This document shows positions 105 through 10,709 of a stretch of DNA of 11,090 nucleotides, piece by piece. Every line of letters starts with the position of its first letter. Within the stretch, counting starts at the first letter, position 1. The DNA lies in the IMG/VR virus record IMGVR_UViG_2737471840_000003, positions 1-11,090 of that record. One strand, given 5' to 3'. The notes below the pieces were generated by a model that saw only the letters and a program-made list of their open reading frames with translations, had not been told where the DNA came from and did no database searches. Origin of the DNA: a virus (lineage: Duplodnaviria; Heunggongvirae; Uroviricota; Caudoviricetes). Both the position numbers and the translations under genes were made by a program.

Positions 105-593
105 TCAGTGACCCGCTTTCAGGGAGTCGTACTGTCGCTCGCATGTGAGTCCTGCAGACCGATATCGCTCAGCCTCTTCTGCTGTTGCGTTGTAAACTCG
201 GTTGCTTTCTTCAAGCATGTCGGCGAGCACACCGATGACCTTGCTGGCTGGCGTGCCAGTGGGGAAAGATCCGGTATAGTGTTCGGCGAGTCGCTTGGTT
301 TTGTCAAGCTCGGCGCGCAGGCCGTCAGCAGCGGCATTAGCATGCTCAGCGTCAACACGCGCCACATCGATACGGGATTGTGCTTCACGTTCAATTTTCG
401 TCTTCTCCTGATCACGTTGTGACCTGGCCTTATCATCAGCCTGTTTCTGGTCTGCCTGCGCCTGCGCATATCCGGCGTCGTACTGGCGGCTTCCATGAAT
501 ATTCCAGGCAACCATGCCGATGACCACCAGCGCAGCAAGCATTGCCACTATAAGCAACTGTTTCCAGTATGCTTTGACGAATTCCCAGATCAT
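105..593 (-). CDS. Putative Rz-type i-spanin (inner-membrane spanin subunit)
   Basis: 162-aa ORF directly after the endolysin; ATG at 593 overlaps the endolysin stop as ATGA (590..593). It has an N-terminal hydrophobic segment ([18 protein letters not shown]) followed by a charged, coiled-coil-like region rich in Q/A/D/K/R/E, and another ORF with a lipobox is embedded in a second frame. Possible SD AAGG 9 nt upstream. Confidence 0.7.
119..367 (-). CDS. Putative Rz1-type o-spanin (outer-membrane lipoprotein), embedded in Rz in another frame
   Basis: ATG at 367..365 opens [17 protein letters not shown]: a short basic n-region, a hydrophobic core and a lipobox-like LTAC. The mature part begins Cys-APSLTKPSDSPNTIPDLSPLARQP and is proline-rich. 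It lies wholly inside the Rz ORF, as in lambda Rz/Rz1. The start is uncertain (alternative Met codons at 343 and 337) and there is no clear SD. Confidence 0.5.
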   Translation of the reverse strand: MWRVLTLSMLMPLLTACAPSLTKPSDSPNTIPDLSPLARQPARSSVCSPTCLKKATEFTTQQQKRLSDIGLQDSHASDSTTP

Positions 594-1216
594 AACAGCG
601 CCTTACGGGCAGCACCGTAACGCGTCCGCCGGTCGTCGATACCGTTCTGTCCACCGTTAATGATCTGCGTGACGCGAACCAGGTCACCTGTGTACTTCAT
701 GCAGCCTTTGGTGGCGAAGAACCACGCCGCGCTACGAGCCGCGTATTCGTCCTGCGCCAGCAGTTCAGGATTCTCCAGCAAGTCAACTTTCAAGCCGTTT
801 CCGCAGTCACGATAGTTATTCAAACCGGTAATCTGGATAAGTCCGCGACCTCGGTAATTCCAGCCATCGCCGGGGGCATTGTTCCCCATGCGTTTGCTGT
901 ACACCAGATTGGCGATCGCTCGCTGGCGCTCGAGTGGCAATGGTGGCTCACCAGCACGTCGCCCCAGTGCATTAGCCTGCCCCTGAGTGAGACGCCCAGC
1001 CCGAACGAAGTTAGCCAGTCCGCTGACGCTGTAGTTGAAATTCTCCTGCAACCGGGTGAAGCCCACAGACTCATGCCCGACCTGAGCAATAAACATTGCC
1101 AGATCTTCTGGTTTGCTGATACCAAACTCTTTCATCGCAGAAGTTATATGCGAGAACCAGCGTGCGGCCAGCGCCTCGCTAATACCAGCAGCTCGCTGGA
1201 ATTGTTTAATCTCCAT
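590..1216 (-). CDS. Endolysin, glycoside hydrolase family 19 (chitinase-like lysozyme)
   Basis: The translation from ATG at 1216 begins [53 protein letters not shown], which matches the N-terminal pattern I recall for phage GH19 endolysins (QF..A.G.S...A..W...L..AM.EF.I.....A.F.AQ..HES..F), followed by [18 protein letters not shown] lies 6 nt upstream. The track ORF 590..1381 starts at a TTG and its first 55 codons overlap the upstream membrane-protein gene, so I shortened it. Confidence 0.9.
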
Positions 1217-1514
1217 GTTTAGACCTCGATATTTTGAAAATCTGAACAACGTTACCGCGTGTTTTAATAACCGCGGCAAGCATGACAGCGTTGATAATGA
1301 CCTCAGATAAATCCACAGCCATTGGCGTGCGTAACCAGATTGCATAAGCGACACGAACTGGAATGCTGGCCGCAGCAACAATCAGGAAATAAGCAAGCCA
1401 CCCACCCCATCGCCTGTGTTGAGAACCGTTTCTCCGAAATGTGGCAACTCGAACTGCTATACCGGCGCAAATAACCGCATTGGTGGTAAGCAAAAAAAGC
1501 TCATGAGTTACCAT
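1206..1514 (-). CDS. Small membrane protein, putative holin (lysis cassette)
   Basis: 102 aa with an ATG start at 1514 and a strong SD (GGGGAG about 8 nt upstream). It has 2-3 hydrophobic segments ([51 protein letters not shown]) and a charged C-terminus. Its 3' end overlaps the endolysin start by 11 nt. The function is assigned from position and topology only. Confidence 0.65.
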
Positions 1515-1905
1515 CGTCTTTTCTCCCCGGAATTAACTCGCGTGGATTATCGGAACGGTGATAGAGCCAGATCCCAATTCGCACAGCGACGATTGCTGAC
1601 ACAAATGCACCGGCAGAGAAAACAATCCCTTTCTCGAAAGAATCCTGTGTGATTGTAGGGATCAGGCTGGCTATGCCGATAAGAATTGATGCTGCTGGTT
1701 TGTAGAATAGAAGTCCGCAGAGAAAGCTAAGCATCGACAAGAGCACGCGACGACGAATTGGATACTCAACGGCAGAGGTAATAAATATTACCGCGCCGGA
1801 TAAAGCACCAAGAGCGACCTCTGGAGGAACCCCGGCAATGACAGCAGCCAGAGAACCCATGCTAAGCCACTGATTTAAAGACTCACTGGTTAGCTGAGCT
1901 GACAT
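1501..1905 (-). CDS. Membrane protein, putative holin or antiholin partner (lysis cassette)
   Basis: The track ORF 1501..1914 starts at GTG; the first ATG is at 1905 with GGTGG 5 nt upstream, giving 134 aa. It has about four hydrophobic segments and a charged C-terminal tail ([19 protein letters not shown]). A second Met at residue 16 (MGSLAAV..) sits just before the first TM segment. It overlaps the next membrane-protein gene by 14 nt. Confidence 0.55.
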   Translation of the reverse strand: MSAQLTSESLNQWLSMGSLAAVIAGVPPEVALGALSGAVIFITSAVEYPIRRRVLLSMLSFLCGLLFYKPAASILIGIASLIPTITQDSFEKGIVFSAGAFVSAIVAVRIGIWLYHRSDNPRELIPGRKDDGNS

Positions 1906-2001
1906 ATCAGCCACCGTTTACTGTGCATAATGAACCCCCTTAGTTGGTAAGTCCATCATACACAATAAACCATATATGGATAAGTTTACCTCGGATAACT
2001 C

Positions 2002-2078: not shown

Positions 2079-3068
2079 ATGAATGAGAAGAACTATGGTG
2101 TAGTTTTAGCTCGTTTCATCGCCATTGTGCTGGTGGTGTTGCTGCATGTTGCTGCTGGTCCAGTTGGTGCAAAGTCTTCGCCTGATTGGGATTGGGCTAA
2201 CGTATATAGTGCCATATCAAAGCAATGCATTGGTATTTTCATAGTTATAACAGGGTTTCTTTACTACCATAAAAAGAAATTCGAATTCTATGATTACATT
2301 AAAAAGGGGTTTAATGTATTATTTGTCCCTCTTGTATTTTGGTGGGTAATATATGCATCTTATTACATTATATTTAAAGATGCTTCCGTAAGCAGCTTTA
2401 ATATTATGAAGCCATCTGCTGTCCATCTATGGTTTATGTATCATTATATTGCGATTTACATGTTTCTCCCGATGATAATTATTGGATGCCAACGCATGGA
2501 TTTGCGGTATAACGTGATGATATTTTTAATTCTATTCTATGGGAATTCTGTACACCCACAGCTAAAGAATTTCATTCCTAATGCACCATCTATAGATATT
2601 CCATTTGTAAGTACATTAATGTTCTATATTTTTGCCGGATGTATAGTTGCAAGACTTGAAAGCCATATCATAAAATTACGCGCTTTCATTTCGTTAACTG
2701 CTGTTATCCTTGCGGTTATATGTGTCTTTACAAATAAGGCTATATTGATTCATGGGATCAAAGGAGTAAACCTAAGCAACTTTAGCCCCATTGTTGGCAT
2801 GACAGCAATAGCAACAACCTGCGCCTGCATTGGATACGCAGACAGAATAAGCAAAAATGCAAATAAACTTGTAACTCTAATTTCCGAATATGCATTTGGA
2901 ATTTATCTTATACATCCTATTATTATATTTATAACATGGAAAATAGCTCCAGTATCAAATTATGCATGGGGAATACCTGTTGCAACTATATTTTATGTCT
3001 TTGCGTCCATGTTGATAGCTGTGATACTTTCAAAAACTCCTTTGTTAAATAGGGTGATAGCCAAGTAA
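2079..3068 (+). CDS. Acyltransferase family 3 integral membrane protein, probable O-antigen/polysaccharide O-acetyltransferase (lysogenic-conversion moron)
   Basis: 329-aa ORF that is hydrophobic throughout, with about 10 predicted TM segments. The N-terminus (YGVVLARFIAIVLVVLLHVAAGP) carries the conserved Arg and His positions I associate with acyltransferase-3 enzymes. Its length is close to short phage Oac-type acetylases. It lies on the opposite strand to all flanking phage genes, is very AT-rich (about 27-32% GC on hand-counted lines), and ends at a bidirectional terminator. Confidence 0.8.
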   Translation: MNEKNYGVVLARFIAIVLVVLLHVAAGPVGAKSSPDWDWANVYSAISKQCIGIFIVITGFLYYHKKKFEFYDYIKKGFNVLFVPLVFWWVIYASYYIIFKDASVSSFNIMKPSAVHLWFMYHYIAIYMFLPMIIIGCQRMDLRYNVMIFLILFYGNSVHPQLKNFIPNAPSIDIPFVSTLMFYIFAGCIVARLESHIIKLRAFISLTAVILAVICVFTNKAILIHGIKGVNLSNFSPIVGMTAIATTCACIGYADRISKNANKLVTLISEYAFGIYLIHPIIIFITWKIAPVSNYAWGIPVATIFYVFASMLIAVILSKTPLLNRVIAK

Positions 3069-3097
3069 AAAAAAAGCCCCTCTACGGGGCATTTTTT
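3067..3097. terminator. Bidirectional rho-independent terminator between convergent acyltransferase and tailspike genes
   Basis: An A-run (3067..3075), a stem GCCCC (3076..3080) / GGGGC (3086..3090) with loop TCTAC, then a T-run (3092..3097). It reads as hairpin plus U-tract on both strands. It overlaps both stop codons. Confidence 0.65.
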
Positions 3098-5780
3098 AAA
3101 TAGCAGAAATAATGAAACATAACATCTCATCATATCTCAAAGAGTAACCATCACCAGCTTCGCAACCTGAGAATGTCATGATTCCATTTTCATCATATTC
3201 TGGTTCCTTCTTATCCCACTTATCGTAGCAAACCATCCCATAACGCATGGGATCTAGCCCTTCATCCTCGAACGCAGAGATAACATCCTGGACAATTGCA
3301 CCTATATGATATCTTGCGCCATCGCCTTTAATAGCTACCGCATCCTTCATTCTGTACCGACAAATCATTCCCTTAATCTTGATAGCCACGCGCTTTTCGG
3401 CTTCACTTATATCCTCGAAATCTGTCTTCTTTCTTCTGTCAGATGTGTTAATGGAACCAGAATCGGCGTAGACCTGAGTCCATTTAAATGATGCACTCCC
3501 GTTAGACTGCGCGCTAGCGACGCCAGGCAATACCTGATCACTGTAAATCTGAAGAGATTGAGTCCCACCACTTTCACTTGTCACTGTCGGATTTGTGAAG
3601 AAGAAAATAGCATTAGGGTTTAAAGTACCCCCTGAGCCGATAACAAGAGGCGTAGAGGTACCGGTATAGTTTATTTGAGCGATGCCAACTTCTTTTCCTG
3701 TTGACGTTGTAAATGATATTTTGCCTAAACCACCTGAATTATTAATATTAAGCTTTGTTCCTGACAATGAGCGCCTTGTAGCTGTCCATGACCCAATGCT
3801 GCCAACTACGGAATAAATTTCTAGCCCAAGTACAGTACCGGAGGATTCAATAATGAATCCTGCATTGTTCAGATTAGTAACATGGTAAATTTGTCCTGTT
3901 ACGTAGTTAAGACCAGGTATCGTGGTGAGCGAAGGAGCAATGGTTGAAAACCAAGAGAACTCAGTTATGTTTAATGAAGCCATTAAATCAAGAATTTGAG
4001 AAACACTGCTGAAGACTGTATTTAAGACTGGATCGCGCAATTCCCCACGCTCCGAACGCATGAGCCTATTAAATCCATATGTTGGGAGAGGACAATATCC
4101 GGAAGCGGCATCCAGCATGTTAAATCCATCCCGTGAAAACTCCCTCATTATAACAATGCCATTGGGTGTGCTAGGAGATGATTCAGCCATATCACCGATA
4201 AGAATTGAATGGATAGTGCCGTCAGGGTGCTTGAAACATCCCTCTGACTCTGTTCTTGAGACGGTGCAACCGTTTGATGCCAGATAAGTCATCAACTTAT
4301 CTGATTTCACAACAGAGTGGTCTATTAACTCACCAGAGAGTGACACTCTGAGGACTCCGTAATCATGAACAGGGTATTTTGCATCATCAAATGTAGGACG
4401 ATAACTGCCACCTACGCCTATATGAAGGATCCCATTTTTGTATGCTATACCCTGAATTTTCCATACCATGTAATAGTAGGTAGGGGAGAGCTCTGGAGTT
4501 GCAAACCCTGTAAGCATCTGAGAGACATTTATTGTTCCCTGCTTCTCACCTGTATCAAGACGATAAGAATTTATAACAGTCTGTGATTGTGACAATCCTA
4601 CTGGTGTCGCGTTTAATGTGCAGAAGAGTAAATTACCATCAATGCACATATGTGATCCAGCCGACTGAATTGTCGTTATTGTGTGCCCTGAAAGCGTGCT
4701 ACCTGCTGCGGGTAATGTGGTTATGTCATAATAATAAACAAAATCATCCCCAAGACGTCTGTCATACAATCTACGTGATGAACTTCCGCCATATATAGCC
4801 ACAGACTGATTACTACTGTTTGGACTATAAAACCACGTTACTTGCTCTCCTGCCTGGTTATAAACAACTATAACCCTAAGCGCCCCTCCAGCATTAGGCA
4901 CATAGTTAATGAAGAGTAGACCATCATCATCATAGTCAGCACCCTGCGGGTATATGATGCTTCCAGCTCCAATTGCCGCCAGTGCATCAGAATACCCATC
5001 GAACTGAAATGGAAGTTTGTAGATTATTTTTTTCCTGAAATTCTGATCTTTAATGGCACTACCAACAGTACCGTCAGGATACTGGATAGAATCGCTATAA
5101 CCTGATAACCCGGCACCTGTTGGTTTCACTAATTCAACAAGAACATCAGTGGCAGAACCAGATGGCGGCAATGTTACAAAAGGAGACCCACTATTATCGA
5201 AGGCTATTATCTTGTTCGCCCTGACAGCGGCAGATGGAAGTGTGGGTATAGGTTCAGGTGTTCTTAGCGTTCTGTTGAGATTGGTTTCAGAAATACTGTC
5301 TACATAGTTCTTTGTAGCAGCATCTTGCGGCCGAGATGGATCCCTGAGATTTCTGATATAGTTGCCCAGGGCGTCATAATAGTTGGCTACAAAGGATGGT
5401 TTTCTTAACGACAGACTAAACCAACTTCTTACCTGCTGAACAAGCATAGTTAACTTATCAAATGCATCCTCATGCACTTCTGCAAAAAACTTCCCCTGGT
5501 TCCTTAGGTCTGTTTCTTGGGTAACCGGCAACTCTCTTGAAATAGAAATCTTATACCCATTGCCTAAAGCAGTTGATAAAACAACATTCCCCCCCGTGTA
5601 TCCACCAGTACCTGTAATCGAATAATCAGTATCAAGCACAAGAGTGGTTATATTTTCATCCAGATCAACAACCTGCACAACCAGGTCTGACTTCTGAAAA
5701 ATTCGAAAGGTATAAGGAAATGAAGTCGTAACGCCATTACCTGTATATTCGTTATGGTCAACTTCGGTTGAGACCGTCAT
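3096..5780 (-). CDS. Tailspike / tail fibre protein with C-terminal intramolecular chaperone (peptidase S74-like) domain
   Basis: 894-aa ORF with ATG at 5780 and SD GGAG 9 nt upstream. The N-terminal roughly 120 aa (MTVSTEVDHNEYTGNGVTTSFPYTFRIFQKSDLVVQVVD...) resemble the conserved particle-binding module of epsilon15-like tailspikes as I recall it. The C-terminal 115 aa begin SDRRKKTDFEDIS and contain YHIGAIVQDV, which fits the S74 autoproteolytic chaperone pattern. The central part is Ser/Thr/Gly/Asn-rich and looks beta-rich. Confidence 0.9.
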   Translation of the reverse strand: MTVSTEVDHNEYTGNGVTTSFPYTFRIFQKSDLVVQVVDLDENITTLVLDTDYSITGTGGYTGGNVVLSTALGNGYKISISRELPVTQETDLRNQGKFFAEVHEDAFDKLTMLVQQVRSWFSLSLRKPSFVANYYDALGNYIRNLRDPSRPQDAATKNYVDSISETNLNRTLRTPEPIPTLPSAAVRANKIIAFDNSGSPFVTLPPSGSATDVLVELVKPTGAGLSGYSDSIQYPDGTVGSAIKDQNFRKKIIYKLPFQFDGYSDALAAIGAGSIIYPQGADYDDDGLLFINYVPNAGGALRVIVVYNQAGEQVTWFYSPNSSNQSVAIYGGSSSRRLYDRRLGDDFVYYYDITTLPAAGSTLSGHTITTIQSAGSHMCIDGNLLFCTLNATPVGLSQSQTVINSYRLDTGEKQGTINVSQMLTGFATPELSPTYYYMVWKIQGIAYKNGILHIGVGGSYRPTFDDAKYPVHDYGVLRVSLSGELIDHSVVKSDKLMTYLASNGCTVSRTESEGCFKHPDGTIHSILIGDMAESSPSTPNGIVIMREFSRDGFNMLDAASGYCPLPTYGFNRLMRSERGELRDPVLNTVFSSVSQILDLMASLNITEFSWFSTIAPSLTTIPGLNYVTGQIYHVTNLNNAGFIIESSGTVLGLEIYSVVGSIGSWTATRRSLSGTKLNINNSGGLGKISFTTSTGKEVGIAQINYTGTSTPLVIGSGGTLNPNAIFFFTNPTVTSESGGTQSLQIYSDQVLPGVASAQSNGSASFKWTQVYADSGSINTSDRRKKTDFEDISEAEKRVAIKIKGMICRYRMKDAVAIKGDGARYHIGAIVQDVISAFEDEGLDPMRYGMVCYDKWDKKEPEYDENGIMTFSGCEAGDGYSLRYDEMLCFIISAI
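3099..3443 (-). other. Predicted S74-type autocleaving chaperone domain of the tailspike (C-terminal 115 codons)
   Basis: Begins at the Ser codon (3441..3443) of the SDRRKK motif and runs to the last sense codon. By analogy with endosialidase and T5 L-shaped fibre chaperone domains, cleavage is expected at this Ser. Confidence 0.6.
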
Positions 5781-5834
5781 GTTAAATCTCCAGATAGTCG
5801 CAGCACCCGTTGCGCCGCATATCCGGTTATTCTA

Positions 5835-5899
5835 TTACCTGAAAAACCACATATGGATAGATAAACCATAAATACGAACAGATATTACCTTTCAGGTGA
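5835..5899. promoter_or_regulatory. Inverted-repeat element in the divergent intergenic region upstream of the tailspike
   Basis: TTACCTGAAA (5835..5844) and TTTCAGGTGA (5890..5899) are inverted 10-bp arms with one mismatch, 45 bp apart. The right arm also forms a local hairpin ACCT-TTC-AGGT (5887..5897). They sit 55-120 nt upstream of the tailspike ATG. Function unknown. Confidence 0.3.
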
Positions 5900-5975
5900 T
5901 TCGCAAAACGTGCTGGATAGCAAACAAATTATTTGCTACTGTATAAATATACAGTTATTGCATGGAGAAGATAAG

Positions 5976-6233
5976 ATGCAGCAGTATCACTATCCACTGG
6001 AAGACGGATTTACCGAAAGGATTCACACGCCGGGAGGCGTCAGGTCACTGGTGGAGGGATCGCACTTGATGAAATTACTCCGGGATCTCGATAAGGATGG
6101 ATTTAATGTCGATGGCCCACTTGCCGAACTGACTGCACTGATTAACTACGTCACCAGCTCACAGATGTCTATGCAGGATCTGCAAACACATCTCGACTAT
6201 TGTGCCGAACAATTACGAAAACAAATCCGGTAA
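5976..6233 (+). CDS. Hypothetical small protein (85 aa), orphan plus-strand gene between virion genes and tailspike
   Basis: ATG at 5976 with SD GGAG 8 nt upstream. The track ORF 5910..6233 starts at GTG with an implausible N-terminus. A TGTATAAAT element at 5940..5948 is -10-like. GC content matches the phage core (34/60 on line 6001). Stop TAA is at 6231..6233, followed by the hairpin at 6241..6256. I recognise no family for MQQYHYPLEDGFTERIHTPGGVRSLVEG.... Confidence 0.5.
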   Translation: MQQYHYPLEDGFTERIHTPGGVRSLVEGSHLMKLLRDLDKDGFNVDGPLAELTALINYVTSSQMSMQDLQTHLDYCAEQLRKQIR

Positions 6234-6240
6234 ATTTAAG

Positions 6241-6256
6241 GGCCGCGAAAGCGGCC
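6241..6256. terminator. GC-rich hairpin, probable terminator for the convergent small genes and the upstream virion operon
   Basis: GGCCGC-GAAA-GCGGCC is a perfect 6-bp stem with a GNRA-type loop. On the minus strand it is followed by CTTAAATTT, a weak U-tract; there is no T-run on the plus strand. It lies between the stop of the 85-aa plus-strand ORF and the stop of the 46-aa minus-strand ORF. Confidence 0.4.
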
Positions 6257-6276
6257 TGTGACATGTCACACTCAAG

Positions 6277-6417
6277 CTATGACAAACCTATGTACCCTGC
6301 TACACCAGATAATATCAAAACAACTGCTACAGCAAATTCACCGTCTTCAATGATACATTTACGATTCATAACGCCAAGGGCAACAAGCACAAATACAACA
6401 AGAATAAAAGCAATCAT
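6277..6417 (-). CDS. Unannotated 46-aa two-TM membrane peptide (not in the ORF track)
   Basis: ATG at 6417 with SD AAGGA 6 nt upstream; the SD overlaps the TAA stop of the 824-aa gene (minus strand reads CCGCAA-TAA-GGATGAGAA-ATG). My hand translation is MIAFILVVFVLVALGVMNRKCIIEDGEFAVAVVLILSGVAGYIGLS, with stop TAG at 6279..6277. It shows two hydrophobic segments separated by a short charged loop (NRKCIIEDGE). Confidence 0.4.
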   Translation of the reverse strand: MIAFILVVFVLVALGVMNRKCIIEDGEFAVAVVLILSGVAGYIGLS

Positions 6418-6426
6418 TTCTCATCC

Positions 6427-8901
6427 TTATTGCGGAGTGACATCCTGAGGTCGCCACCAGTATGTCTGGTTAAACTCTTTCTTCGAACGTTGCTCCATTT
6501 TACGCAAATAGCCTGGTGAAAAATACTCCTGCATCTGGTTAAAGATCATGTGATCGAGAGCCGCCTTCAAGTACCAGAGATTCGCACCTGGCATCAAACC
6601 TTTCCCCAGCTTCACCAGATCACCACCAGTCTGCTCACTCTTCCCTTCCACAGCATTTAACGGTATGCCCTGAGCAATCTTCACTACGTCATCAACCAGA
6701 CCAGCCACCGGGCCAAGCATCGACGCCAGCGCGCCGCTTCCGTACCTAGTGTGATCTGACAATAAAAAGTCACCGTAAAGGCCAAGACCACCACCTTTCA
6801 ATAGAGCACCAAGCCAGAATTTTGCGGCATCTTCTCCTGTCATCTCGCGAGGATTACGACCAGACGCAAGGTCGTTAAGTTGCTGCGACAAAGCTCCAAG
6901 AATGGTCGTACTGGCAATAAACGTCGCAATATATGCCGCACGCCCACCAGCAGACGGCATACCCATAGCGCGTGACCAGTGACGCATAACCACCGAGATA
7001 GGGAACGATTTAAACAGGAAAACACTTCTCGTTAATTCACCTTTCCATGTTCCACGCTGAATACCAGAACCGGTTATCAGTTGCTCACGTGCTCCCGGTG
7101 TAATAACAGCCATATCAACTTCTTCAGTTACGGCACCGAGCAGTTTACGCATTGCCTCAAATTTCACGCGTTCAGGCTCACCAAGATGTTTAACTGCTGA
7201 ATCAGGGATACGCATAATGCTTTCCGGTGTCAGCATCGTATTATTACCGTTCCCCCAGTCCTCCTGTTGCGCCAACTTCCATACGCTCCAGTCTGTGTCA
7301 GTAATCCCTTTGCTTTTCAGGATACGAAAATCAGAGTCATCGAGGCTACGAAGGCCTGGTGTCCGTGACACTACTTCTCCCAGGCTTCCCATCATGGTTA
7401 CGCCATAGGCGCGCTTGTGCGCATCTGACCATGCTGTAAGCCCACTGGCACGCATTACCGCCGTTGCAGCCCAACGAGACACAGACGGCCCCATATTATC
7501 CATCGCCCAGCGGTTAACGCTGCCAAGTAGAGATTCCATCGCCAGACCAGCGCGGCGCGCCCGCGCAAGCTCAGTACGGTTCGTTGGGTCCATAGCTTCA
7601 AGCTGGTTGCGGAATAACTGGTTCATCGGAAGGTTGGTCACCTTCGCAGACAGATACATGGTTCCAAGATCAGAGAACGATGACAGCAACGCGGATCCGA
7701 GTCTGCTGGCAACCAGCCAGTTGCGGATATTGTCAGACCATCGCGCGATGTGCGGATTCGCTACAGGCTGTGTCTTTCCGGAAATAAAGTTGTACAGATT
7801 CTCTGTGTTGTTCGCCAGCCGCTCGACTTTACCGGTTTTACTCGGGTTAGCTGTTGCCGTTTCTGCCTTAACCTGATCAAGAAGGGAGCGGAAAACATGA
7901 TCGGGGTTTGGACCATATGTTTCCACCAGAGCAATATCTTTACTGATACCTTCCAGGTGACCGACCATGATTTCCCATAGAGAGCGATCGCCATAAAGTT
8001 GTTGATATTGGAGATAGGAATCTGCATCTTTGAAATGTATCTGTCGTGATGCATTACCACGGTTAGCACGTGCGCCGGAAATTCGCATTCCGGTATCAGT
8101 AAGCTTATTCAGCCCACCAGTAGCGATCGTGTTATAAGCCTCTCCAAGAAATGCAGACAACTCGGCATCGTTCATCAGTTGTCCATCGGCTCGGGTATAA
8201 TATTTGCGATCCAGCTTACCTATAACATCGCTAACCCATTTATCTTTTGATACCGCACCAACCTTTTCCATAGAATGATGTTGAGGGATCCCCCAGTTTT
8301 CGAGATAGCCAATGTCCCCACCAGCATCATTAAACCGGCGGCGCAGCAGCTCTGTAACTTCTCTCCACGCCTTAGCACCTTTTCTTGCTTTAGCATTGCC
8401 AGTATTTTGCCCCCGCATTTCATATACCAGGTCACGTACGCCCGCTTCATCTTCAAACAGACCAAAAAAGCGAGGATCAACTGCTTCGAATGCCTCCTGC
8501 AATTGACTCAATGCATAATCACGGGTGGCTTTTGTTCTGGATTCAACAGAGAGGAAATTAGATTTACCGTCTGCATTAAAAGCTATAGTACGGTTAAGAG
8601 CGCCAAGTTTCCCATCAGCCCCTTGATAGCTATTGATAAATTTATCCAATCTCTGACGCGCGGCTATAGTGAGAGCCACACGACGTTTCTTTAATGCCGC
8701 TTCTCGCTGTAATTCTTCAGATGCCAATTGTGCTGCTCGATATAGCCGCTCTGATTCGGAAAGTTGTCGCCACGACATCGGGTCATCACGAGCAATGGAG
8801 CGCATATTTCGATAAATGCGGTCTTCAATGTTTTGTATTTCTCGCGCCGTTAAAGTGCGCTGCGCCGCCTGCTGGACCGCTTGTATACATTCCTGTCTCA
8901 T
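6427..8901 (-). CDS. Large virion protein (824 aa), putative internal core / ejection protein
   Basis: ATG at 8901 with SD GAGG about 11 nt upstream, 5 nt after the stop of the 600-aa gene. It has a helical, charged N-terminus and C-terminal Gly-rich hydrophobic stretches (AAYIATFIASTTILGAL, FWLGALLKGGGLGLYGDFLL, LASMLGPVAGLV). No enzymatic motif recognised. The function is inferred from size, composition and position upstream of the tailspike. Confidence 0.8.
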   Translation of the reverse strand: MRQECIQAVQQAAQRTLTAREIQNIEDRIYRNMRSIARDDPMSWRQLSESERLYRAAQLASEELQREAALKKRRVALTIAARQRLDKFINSYQGADGKLGALNRTIAFNADGKSNFLSVESRTKATRDYALSQLQEAFEAVDPRFFGLFEDEAGVRDLVYEMRGQNTGNAKARKGAKAWREVTELLRRRFNDAGGDIGYLENWGIPQHHSMEKVGAVSKDKWVSDVIGKLDRKYYTRADGQLMNDAELSAFLGEAYNTIATGGLNKLTDTGMRISGARANRGNASRQIHFKDADSYLQYQQLYGDRSLWEIMVGHLEGISKDIALVETYGPNPDHVFRSLLDQVKAETATANPSKTGKVERLANNTENLYNFISGKTQPVANPHIARWSDNIRNWLVASRLGSALLSSFSDLGTMYLSAKVTNLPMNQLFRNQLEAMDPTNRTELARARRAGLAMESLLGSVNRWAMDNMGPSVSRWAATAVMRASGLTAWSDAHKRAYGVTMMGSLGEVVSRTPGLRSLDDSDFRILKSKGITDTDWSVWKLAQQEDWGNGNNTMLTPESIMRIPDSAVKHLGEPERVKFEAMRKLLGAVTEEVDMAVITPGAREQLITGSGIQRGTWKGELTRSVFLFKSFPISVVMRHWSRAMGMPSAGGRAAYIATFIASTTILGALSQQLNDLASGRNPREMTGEDAAKFWLGALLKGGGLGLYGDFLLSDHTRYGSGALASMLGPVAGLVDDVVKIAQGIPLNAVEGKSEQTGGDLVKLGKGLMPGANLWYLKAALDHMIFNQMQEYFSPGYLRKMEQRSKKEFNQTYWWRPQDVTPQ

Positions 8902-8906
8902 TTAAT

Positions 8907-10709
8907 TTAACCTCTCAAGAAACACGCCACAGCGACATCAAACAGGCTGGAATCCTGTATTGCCTGCTCACTTTCCCTGTTCGCTTCATCCAGTACTTCA
9001 CGCGCGCTGCGCGATTGTGGATTACCATCATCATCCAGCACGGTGATTATCATGTCAGGTGATTCAAGCAGCGAGTCTTCAGCTATGCGCAGATCAATAT
9101 CTCCTGCCGGATCTGCCATCATTTTTTGTTCTGTCTGTTGCAATATCTTACCGGGCTCAAAAGGAGCTACTTCGTCTGGCGTCCTGACCTCTGCTGTTTT
9201 ATAGAATGAAACAGCCTGAGCATTAAGTTCACTTTCTGCCTGCTGTCGTCGTGCCAGTTCTGCTCGAGCTTCAAAAAACTGACCGCCAGGCTCATGCGGT
9301 GCCAACGCGTTACGGGAAAATTCCAGGCGCTCTTGTGCCTGCCGGATTCGTTGGTCAATATCGCGAAGTCTGACCTGTTTATCTGATCGAGCACGAGACA
9401 AAGCTTTACCGCTACCGGTTGGCTCTTCTGCAAGAATTTGTGCGCGCTGTTCAGTGAGATTTTCAATAATTCGTTGGCTATTAGCGATTTCAGACTGGTA
9501 AACCTGTCTATCGCCACGCGGCAAAAGCTGCGCGGCCTGTTCTTCAAGCAACCGATTTTCTATAGCGCGCGCCGTTACTCCATCATCTACAGATGACAGA
9601 GCCTCATTAACTGCCTGAGACAGCAGACTCTTGCGCCCAGGAATTTCACTGAAAGATGCAGACTCAACAATGCTGGCAACGTCTACAGGTCTCCCCTGGC
9701 TAACATCAGACATAGCTTTTCGCAGAGCCTGAATGTGAGAATTGCGCGAAAGCACGTTGATCGGCACGCCGGGCGCAATATCAATTTCAGCATGATGAGC
9801 GGCATTCGCCGCCAGTGCAGCATCAACATCAACTGGTGAAAAATTTGGTGCGCTTGTAGACTCGCCGCGAGAGTTCATAAATCTGCCGACACCACCAAAC
9901 GCCACCCCAAGAACAGCATCAATAGCAATTGCCTGTCGATCCAACACATCATACTGGTTAGCCATTTCGCTATAGCCACCATCACGAAGCGTTTTTGCAG
10001 TAAGCCCACGCTGTGCCATACCGAACGCAATATTTGTACCTGCGGCATAGGCAATATCTGGCGTTGCACGTACTGCTGTTGCTGCGGCGCGTCGCACTGA
10101 ACTTTCACCCGTCCGCGCAAGCTGGGCCGCCACACCTTCCGCCAGCGCACCACCAGCACGTAACCCGAGGCTCATAGGGATCAGTGTTCCGGCACCAGCA
10201 GTAATACCCTGCACTAATCCCGCTTCCTGCGCCGTCCTGAAATCAACACCCTGTGCTGTCAGCCGTTCAAACTCAGAAAAACCCTGTAGAGAAGTTACCG
10301 CCGCAGCACCTCCGACCGGACCACCGAGCGTTGTACCGACAACAGCCTGCCCTCCCATATCGAACAACCCATAAAGGACCTGCCCGGCGGTTCCGGTTGT
10401 CGCGGCATCAGGCGTCAGCCGCTTAACCTGCTGCTCTGCTAGTTTTCTCTGCTCAGCAATGTATGAAACTGAAGTGTCATTAAGCGAGGTGTTTTCGTTA
10501 ACAAACTGAGCAATCGGGGATACGATTTTATCCATCCCTGCCCATAGCAACTGATCTGGCTTTGCCACCAGCCCGGAGTACAAACCAGACAATGCCGCTC
10601 CTACAGCATTGTCGAAAAAACCAACATTGCTGTTAAAGCCAGCTGGATTTGATGCTGCTTCGTCAAGCTGCTGATTCTGGCTTACTGGATTAAGGCCAAA
10701 GTAACTCAT
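8907..10709 (-). CDS. Large Gly/Ala-rich virion protein (600 aa), putative internal core / ejection protein
   Basis: ATG at 10709 overlaps the upstream gene's stop as ATGA (10706..10709); GGAG lies about 10 nt upstream. It has long Gly/Ala-rich low-complexity stretches (VVGTTLGGPVGGAAAVTSL, GITAGAGTLIPMSLGLRAGGALAEGVAAQLA) and a charged helical region (EQRAQILAEE...RQAQERLE). No enzymatic motif recognised. Confidence 0.8.
   Translation of the reverse strand: MSYFGLNPVSQNQQLDEAASNPAGFNSNVGFFDNAVGAALSGLYSGLVAKPDQLLWAGMDKIVSPIAQFVNENTSLNDTSVSYIAEQRKLAEQQVKRLTPDAATTGTAGQVLYGLFDMGGQAVVGTTLGGPVGGAAAVTSLQGFSEFERLTAQGVDFRTAQEAGLVQGITAGAGTLIPMSLGLRAGGALAEGVAAQLARTGESSVRRAAATAVRATPDIAYAAGTNIAFGMAQRGLTAKTLRDGGYSEMANQYDVLDRQAIAIDAVLGVAFGGVGRFMNSRGESTSAPNFSPVDVDAALAANAAHHAEIDIAPGVPINVLSRNSHIQALRKAMSDVSQGRPVDVASIVESASFSEIPGRKSLLSQAVNEALSSVDDGVTARAIENRLLEEQAAQLLPRGDRQVYQSEIANSQRIIENLTEQRAQILAEEPTGSGKALSRARSDKQVRLRDIDQRIRQAQERLEFSRNALAPHEPGGQFFEARAELARRQQAESELNAQAVSFYKTAEVRTPDEVAPFEPGKILQQTEQKMMADPAGDIDLRIAEDSLLESPDMIITVLDDDGNPQSRSAREVLDEANRESEQAIQDSSLFDVAVACFLRG

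Follow-up and report, generated by a model that had tools for sequence, protein, structure and literature searches.

Between the virion genes and the tailspike gene of the phage DNA analyzed here lies a gene of 85 codons that reads in the opposite direction to both, and the question it raises is what function it has. The window, by which we mean the whole stretch of 11,090 nucleotides under analysis, represents the late and lysis end of a temperate E. coli podovirus or prophage of the epsilon15-like (Uetakevirus) kind. The original prediction, made from the sequence alone, treated the gene as an orphan inserted at this point and as a moron with its own expression. The analysis indicates, with high confidence, that it is the SOS-controlled antirepressor gene (ant) of the lysis-lysogeny switch of this prophage.

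The window contains the Rz, endolysin and holin genes (105-1914, minus strand), an AT-rich acyltransferase gene of the oac type (2079-3068, plus strand), the gene for an 894-aa tailspike (3096-5780, minus strand), ant (5976-6233, plus strand), a gene for a 46-aa membrane protein (6277-6417, minus strand) and two genes for large virion proteins (6427-8901 and 8907-10709, minus strand). In megablast comparisons phiV10, TL-2011b, PAS61 and other relatives matched the region at 95-99% identity. Matches to the region were present in 568 of 5426 complete E. coli genomes, and the whole window was matched in three (97-99.3% identity). The prophage of E. coli C6, which is integrated between yfgI and guaA, is 98.6% identical to all 11,090 bases. 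The closest match, at 99.3%, was found in E. coli E47 (NZ_CP121151.1, 1325883-1338304); there an ISL3-family element, ISKox3, is inserted within the region and the match is in two pieces over 12.4 kb.

The neighbours of ant have features of their own. The tailspike carries the conserved Uetakevirus N-terminal adaptor of about 230-290 aa and, at its C-terminus, a Peptidase_S74 intramolecular-chaperone domain (residues 780-842). Adjoining its gene is the Acyl_transf_3 gene (GC 0.35), an O-antigen-modifying conversion module, and both genes are swapped between relatives. The 46-aa product is a conserved predicted integral membrane protein (phrog_7892, SPC32H_019, phiV10 p21) and its gene forms the end of the virion operon.

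The 85-codon gene and its homologues

The open reading frame begins with ATG at 5976 on the plus strand and ends with TAA at 6233. A search of PDB sequences with its 85-aa product gave a single match, chain E of entry 5D50 ('Anti-repressor protein', 86 aa; E=1.6e-46, residues 2-83), a chain that represents Ant of Salmonella phage SPC32H in a solved complex with the repressor Rep. Identity to SPC32H_020 (86 aa, 'ant: anti-repressor protein' in GenBank) is 88%. Among PHROGs, the product matched phrog_450 (E 1e-47) and, more weakly, phrog_1760 'anti-repressor', the latter via the C-terminus of that family. The window gene is already known: it is a close orthologue of a protein characterized both genetically and structurally, whose genomic setting and control element it shares. 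Against Pfam, NCBIfam and PADLOC the 85-aa protein had no hit above threshold; those below it were DUF724 at 17.5 bits (cut-off 38.4) and UpsF at 13 bits, and PADLOC gave none. The silence of these three collections accounts for the failure of the original prediction to recognize any family. The PHROGs and PDB searches resolved the identity, and the gene can no longer be described as an orphan.

Homologues of the protein form more than 130 clusters at 60-98% identity, from Escherichia, Salmonella, Citrobacter, Klebsiella, Enterobacter, Yersinia and other genera. The frame, whose decay in close relatives had been proposed as a sign of a spurious gene, was intact at 85-86 aa in nearly all of about 100 homologous loci. 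Comparison with orthologues of Salmonella, Citrobacter and Enterobacter phages and prophages by the method of Nei and Gojobori gave dN/dS values of 0.05-0.08 at dS of 1.2-2.8. These values indicate that ant is a real gene under strong purifying selection, in agreement with the prediction of a genuine plus-strand frame. The crystallized Ant agrees with the 85-86 aa form. Longer starts, namely GTG at 5910 (107 aa) and the 126-127 aa forms of some database entries and of the PAS61 annotation, were rejected because they would turn the LexA box described below into coding sequence and have no Shine-Dalgarno sequence. One natural variant (L078, 4001-4420) has lost the ant stop codon and encodes a 139-aa product.

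The placement of the gene was as predicted: the flanking tailspike and virion genes are all on the minus strand, and the acyltransferase gene is the sole other gene on the plus strand. Its GC content (0.481) is that of the phage core, the structural neighbours being at 0.43-0.52, and differs from that of the acyltransferase island (0.351), which upholds the view that ant was not part of the acyltransferase acquisition. The notion that the gene had been inserted did not survive a comparison of synteny. In SPC32H the order is the same as in the window, that is tailspike (minus), ant (plus), 46-aa membrane gene (minus) and 824-aa virion protein (minus). The slot itself, in which ant points away from the tailspike gene and towards the virion operon, is common to SPC32H, epsilon15, phiV10, PAS61, Tyrion and BUCT554. 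The distance from the ant ATG to the tailspike start is 195-204 nt in 23 loci and 195 nt in the window.

Sequences flanking ant

Upstream of ant the 20-mer TACTGTATAAATATACAGTT (5937-5956, plus strand) matches the E. coli consensus of the LexA (SOS) box, TACTGTATATATATACAGTA, in 18 of 20 positions. Its core, CTGT-N8-ACAG (5939-5954), occurs only once in the whole window, and a scan for the LexA 20-mer with up to three mismatches gave one match in the window as against none in 200 shuffles. In nearly all of the approximately 100 homologous loci, SPC32H included, the box is located at -37/-38 from the ATG, and this placement is shared by homologues as low as about 70% in protein identity, drawn from about eight enterobacterial genera. 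Both arms, CTGT and ACAG, are fixed; the inner 8 nt vary (ATAAATAT, ATATTTAT, ATGTTTAT, ACATTTAT, ATAAGCAT and others) and the flanks diverge. Fixed arms around a variable centre are the pattern of an operator and not that of a -10 hexamer, and we regard the conserved box as a candidate LexA operator. The most distant loci, those of Klebsiella, Kluyvera, Superficieibacter and Pseudescherichia (61-77% identity), have ATGT-N8-ACAG, with one mismatch, in the same place.

These data bear on the -10-like TATAAAT that had been predicted about 30 nt upstream of the gene. The heptamer is present, at 5942-5948, but it is the centre of the LexA box. It was rejected as a -10 element on two grounds: an acceptable -35 is lacking at 16-18 nt upstream, and the heptamer varies (TATGTTT, TATATTT, TACATTT and TATAAGC in relatives) while CTGT and ACAG are kept. 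A different pair of hexamers could serve as the ant promoter: a putative -35, TTGCTA (5933-5938, plus strand), and 17 nt 3′ of it a weak putative -10, TATTGC (5956-5961, plus strand). The first hexamer, TTGCTA or TTGATA, is directly beside the LexA box and is conserved in relatives, and relatives of the Klebsiella type read TTGATA-N17-TATTTA. The LexA box would then fill the spacer of the putative promoter. Both hexamers are what we infer from the sequence, since a scan of positions 5700-6500 with the sigma-70 consensus called no plus-strand promoter at threshold. The good Shine-Dalgarno sequence that had been predicted was found as GGAGA (5963-5967, plus strand), 9 nt upstream of the ATG, and ATGGAG is kept at this place in most relatives.

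Two loci depart from the common arrangement of the LexA box. One (L022, about 3940-3965) has a rearrangement breakpoint within the box, with unrelated sequence in place of the left arm, and the other (L018, 3964-3979) has a point mutation that changes the left arm to CTGC. Either variant might deregulate ant.

On the other side of the gene, 8 nt after the stop codon, the intrinsic-terminator scan located the predicted GC hairpin as GGCCGC-GAAA-GCGGCC (6241-6256). Its fold energies are -17.8 kcal/mol on the plus and -19.2 kcal/mol on the minus strand, and it scores as an intrinsic terminator for the minus strand only; the equivalent stem-loop is annotated as a minus-strand terminator in the epsilon15 record. 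Beside the hairpin is a perfect 12-bp palindrome, GTGACATGTCAC (6258-6269), found once in the window where 0.01 matches would be expected. It was present in every locus checked, on the virion-gene side of the variable slot described below. In relatives with an insert after ant the palindrome is at the far end of the insert, adjoining the virion genes, and in phiV10 a predicted terminator is also located at the far end. Taken together, the minus-only score and the position of GTGACATGTCAC in such relatives make it most likely that the hairpin terminates the virion operon; it probably serves the ant transcript only as a bidirectional element. The palindrome is kept from E. coli to Salmonella, Citrobacter, Enterobacter and Pseudescherichia loci while the sequence of the hairpin changes, and is a possible protein-binding site.

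The spacer from the ant stop codon to the terminator of the virion operon (6234-6276 in the window) is a hypervariable cargo slot. Measured using the C-terminus of the 824-aa virion protein, the slot is effectively empty (about 200-300 nt) in 19 of approximately 100 loci, the window among them, and in most of the others it measures from 0.5 kb to over 4 kb (for example L001, 6454-7660; L097, 3355-4417; and L099, L100 and L101). Inserts carry Bro-N or AntA/AntB antirepressors, a YafO-type toxin-antitoxin, a DUF2335 protein and other genes. The Bro-N proteins encoded just 3′ of ant (L101, 4532-5227; L097, 3672-4376; L001, 6766-7350) have C-terminal segments of about 75 aa that are 38-42% identical to the whole of Ant. 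This Ant-like domain explains the match to phrog_1760 and implies that the Ant fold is also used as a fused module. The Bro-N copy of phiV10 ends after about 30 aa of the Ant-like domain.

Rep, its operators and the proposed switch

The rep gene is outside the 11-kb window, so the partner of Ant was identified in near-identical and related genomes only, and the evidence for Rep comes from the E. coli C6 prophage as the closest complete genome. A repressor of the Rep type has an N-terminal DNA-binding domain, a dimerization domain in the middle and a C-terminal CAD domain, and no domain for RecA-dependent autocleavage. The C6 prophage encodes a 194-aa homologue that matches chain A of PDB 5D50 ('Repressor', E=4e-42) over the full length. 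An HTH_3 domain is present, and a search of this protein for the Peptidase_S24 (autocleavage) domain gave no match. With an identity of only 42% between the C6 and SPC32H repressors, binding of Ant to Rep in the window phage is extrapolated from SPC32H. In the C-terminal (CAD-equivalent) segment identity is about 53% by manual count on the alignment, above the average, and F187 and F190 of SPC32H Rep align with Y and F. According to PMC9986798, these two residues belong to the tetramer interface of Rep.

The palindrome ATTACC-N5-GGTAAT occurs in clusters that flank rep in SPC32H and epsilon15; in the C6 prophage it clusters close to this gene. Its half-sites ATTACC and GGTAAT are thus identical in the two lineages despite the divergence of their repressors; between E. 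coli and SPC32H lineages Ant is 88% and Rep 42% conserved (L006, 2861-3445, compared with L007, 9740-10336).

A palindrome of the same kind, ATTACC-TTTCA-GGTGAT, with one mismatch, is located in the window at 5884-5900, midway between the divergent starts of the tailspike gene and ant; by chance, 0.12 such sites would be expected in the whole window. The epsilon15 record marks the homologous site as one bound by a 'repressor', and the arms of the palindrome, ATTACC and GGT.A, are invariant in the tailspike-ant intergenic region of 13 aligned relatives. The site could repress the tailspike promoter, ant, or both. Further conserved blocks, ATTCTATTACC and TATATGRAT, were observed at 5825-5860. 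On the minus strand of this segment a promoter-like TCCATA-N17-TAGAAT faces the tailspike gene, and a GGTAAT operator half-site overlaps the spacer and the -10 of this predicted promoter. As the virion operon appears to terminate at 6241-6256, the tailspike gene may own a promoter, possibly a Rep-sensitive one.

An operator-like palindrome, TTATTACC-N5-GGTAAAT, was also observed directly 3′ of the ant stop codon (within the first 60 nt), before the inserted genes, in six loci (L009, L097, L010, L011, L013 and L099). In two of them, Tyrion (L097) and Klebsiella phage phi3.2 (L099), the gene annotated next encodes a Bro-N antirepressor. Such a site followed by such a gene suggests that a second, Bro-N antirepressor would be under the control of Rep and not of LexA.

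A LexA-Ant-Rep antirepression switch has reportedly been worked out in SPC32H (Kim & Ryu 2013, J Virol 87:11775; Kim et al. 2016, PNAS 113:E2480; PDB entries 5D50 and 5D4Z). According to PMC7380047, which cites Kim & Ryu 2013, self-cleavage of LexA is followed by production of Ant, and Ant inhibits the repressor through protein-protein contact. In the SPC32H structure Ant forms a tetramer; as described in PMC9638917, this tetramer binds a pair of Rep dimers and takes apart the tetramer with which Rep binds DNA, and PMC9986798 assigns both tetramerization and Ant binding to the C-terminal CAD domain of Rep.

Transferred to the window phage, these data predict the following course of events. In a lysogen, LexA of the host would occupy the SOS box over the ant promoter and keep ant switched off. 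DNA damage would activate RecA, LexA would cleave itself, and ant would be transcribed from its own promoter, independently of late transcription. The Ant produced would bind the C-terminal tetramerization (CAD) domain of Rep and, if it acts as described for SPC32H, reduce Rep from the DNA-binding tetramer to dimers of low DNA affinity. Rep, predicted to have no RecA-sensitive self-cleavage domain of its own, would in this way be inactivated, the early promoters would be derepressed and the prophage would enter lytic growth. What was read from sequence for this scheme is the orthology, the synteny, the purifying selection, the conserved SOS box and, in a near-identical prophage, a Rep that matches together with its operators; binding by LexA, the contact of Ant with Rep and the phenotype on induction are carried over from the SPC32H literature.

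A wider scheme can be drawn from the same data. Ant would be a near-universal inducer that acts in trans on Uetakevirus prophages with diverged Rep proteins, the intergenic operator would give Rep direct control of the tailspike gene, of ant, or of both, and the Bro-N/Ant fusions would constitute a second antirepressor controlled by Rep. If this were true, the published LexA-Ant-Rep circuit would gain a second layer through the direct control by Rep. We consider the complete scheme tentative and, on the whole, unlikely.

It could also be argued that the protein is a true Ant orthologue whose main target is not, or not only, its cognate Rep, either because it acts in trans on the repressors of co-resident prophages or because the switch has partly decayed. 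The unequal conservation of Ant and Rep noted above would fit such a role, as would the occurrence of Ant-like domains fused to Bro-N proteins in the neighbouring slot, and crosstalk of antirepressors of the Gifsy type is documented for Salmonella prophages (PMC7380047). Against this, the segment of Rep equivalent to CAD is better conserved than the remainder, with aromatic residues aligned to F187 and F190, and the operator half-sites are the same in both lineages, for which the simplest explanation is that the cognate interaction has been retained. We judge this reading to be very improbable.

The reading first proposed, a horizontally acquired moron of unknown family with its own promoter and a role in anti-defence, superinfection exclusion or surface modification, has in its favour the regulatory signals of the gene, its antisense orientation relative to the structural genes and the lack of any significant match in Pfam, NCBIfam and PADLOC. 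A moron would be expected to be variable in presence and atypical in composition. Instead, ant was found at the same position in every related phage and prophage examined and has the composition of the phage core; it is the slot downstream of ant whose cargo truly varies. In addition, the protein is 88% identical to an antirepressor that has been solved and characterized, and the conserved LexA box fits an induction switch. A moron is accordingly very unlikely. What stands of that proposal is a separate transcription unit that, judged by its signals, would be independent of late transcription; none of the suggested roles (anti-defence, regulation of the tailspike, surface modification, superinfection exclusion) gained support, and the evidence favours an SOS-triggered antirepressor.

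Hardly any weight can be given to the view that the unit mainly regulates tailspike expression, by competition of divergent promoters or by convergent or antisense transcription against the virion operon, with the peptide secondary: the two genes do diverge from a control region of 195 nt that they share and that is rich in conserved motifs, and ant does converge on the virion operon at a shared hairpin, but the strong purifying selection on the protein and the solved protein-protein complex mark the protein as the functional product.

Implications and comparison with known systems

In the E. coli records examined, including those of O157 phage phiV10 and of TL-2011b, a phage of an EHEC outbreak strain, RefSeq and GenBank label the product 'hypothetical protein'. 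The main value of assigning ant to an SOS-triggered switch would be the correction of this annotation, and no new biology is implied. The assignment would explain how these prophages, which carry O-antigen-modifying acyltransferases, respond to DNA-damaging antibiotics despite a repressor that is unable to cleave itself. A further consequence is that accessory cargo should be sought in the hypervariable slot just 3′ of ant.

The nearest known system is that of SPC32H. Its Ant and that of the window are nearly equal in length (86 and 85 aa) and have the same gene order, strand and offset of the LexA box, and genomes related to the window have, like SPC32H, a Rep-type repressor and the same operator palindrome. 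The differences are that the host of the window phage is E. coli, that Rep of the closest complete prophage is only 42% identical, and that the central 8 nt of the LexA box read ATAAATAT in the window and ATGTTTAT in SPC32H. Direct orthologues in the same slot, both annotated as hypothetical proteins, are p24 of phiV10 (96% protein identity) and gp19 of epsilon15 (84%). Unlike the window, phiV10 has a 1.2-kb insert after ant with a truncated Bro-N gene.

The position of ant recalls phage P22. In the immI region of P22 an ant gene controlled by Mnt and Arc lies between gene 16 and tailspike gene 9, so that in both temperate podoviruses an antirepressor gene is placed between ejection or virion genes and the tailspike gene. 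P22 Ant has about 300 aa and is under Mnt/Arc and not LexA. Like Ant of the SPC32H type, it inhibits the prophage repressor through protein binding (PMC7380047). The c2 repressor of P22 is itself cleavable by RecA, and an ant mutant of P22 is still SOS-inducible (PMC7380047). Pfam, NCBIfam and PDB searches with the 85-aa protein gave no link to P22 Ant, the Pfam search gave no match to a Bro-N/ANT domain, and no mnt- or arc-like reading frames were found in the 195-nt upstream or 43-nt downstream spacers of ant.

Small antirepressors controlled by LexA are reportedly also known from coliphage 186 (Tum; Shearwin 1998) and from Gifsy and Fels-2 (Lemire 2011, PMC3121763). Like ant of the window, they combine an SOS box and a non-cleavable repressor with inhibition by protein-protein contact (PMC7380047). 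The likeness considered here is one of regulatory logic. The repressor families differ and, unlike the genes of the Tum and Gifsy type, ant of Uetakevirus is located in the late region.
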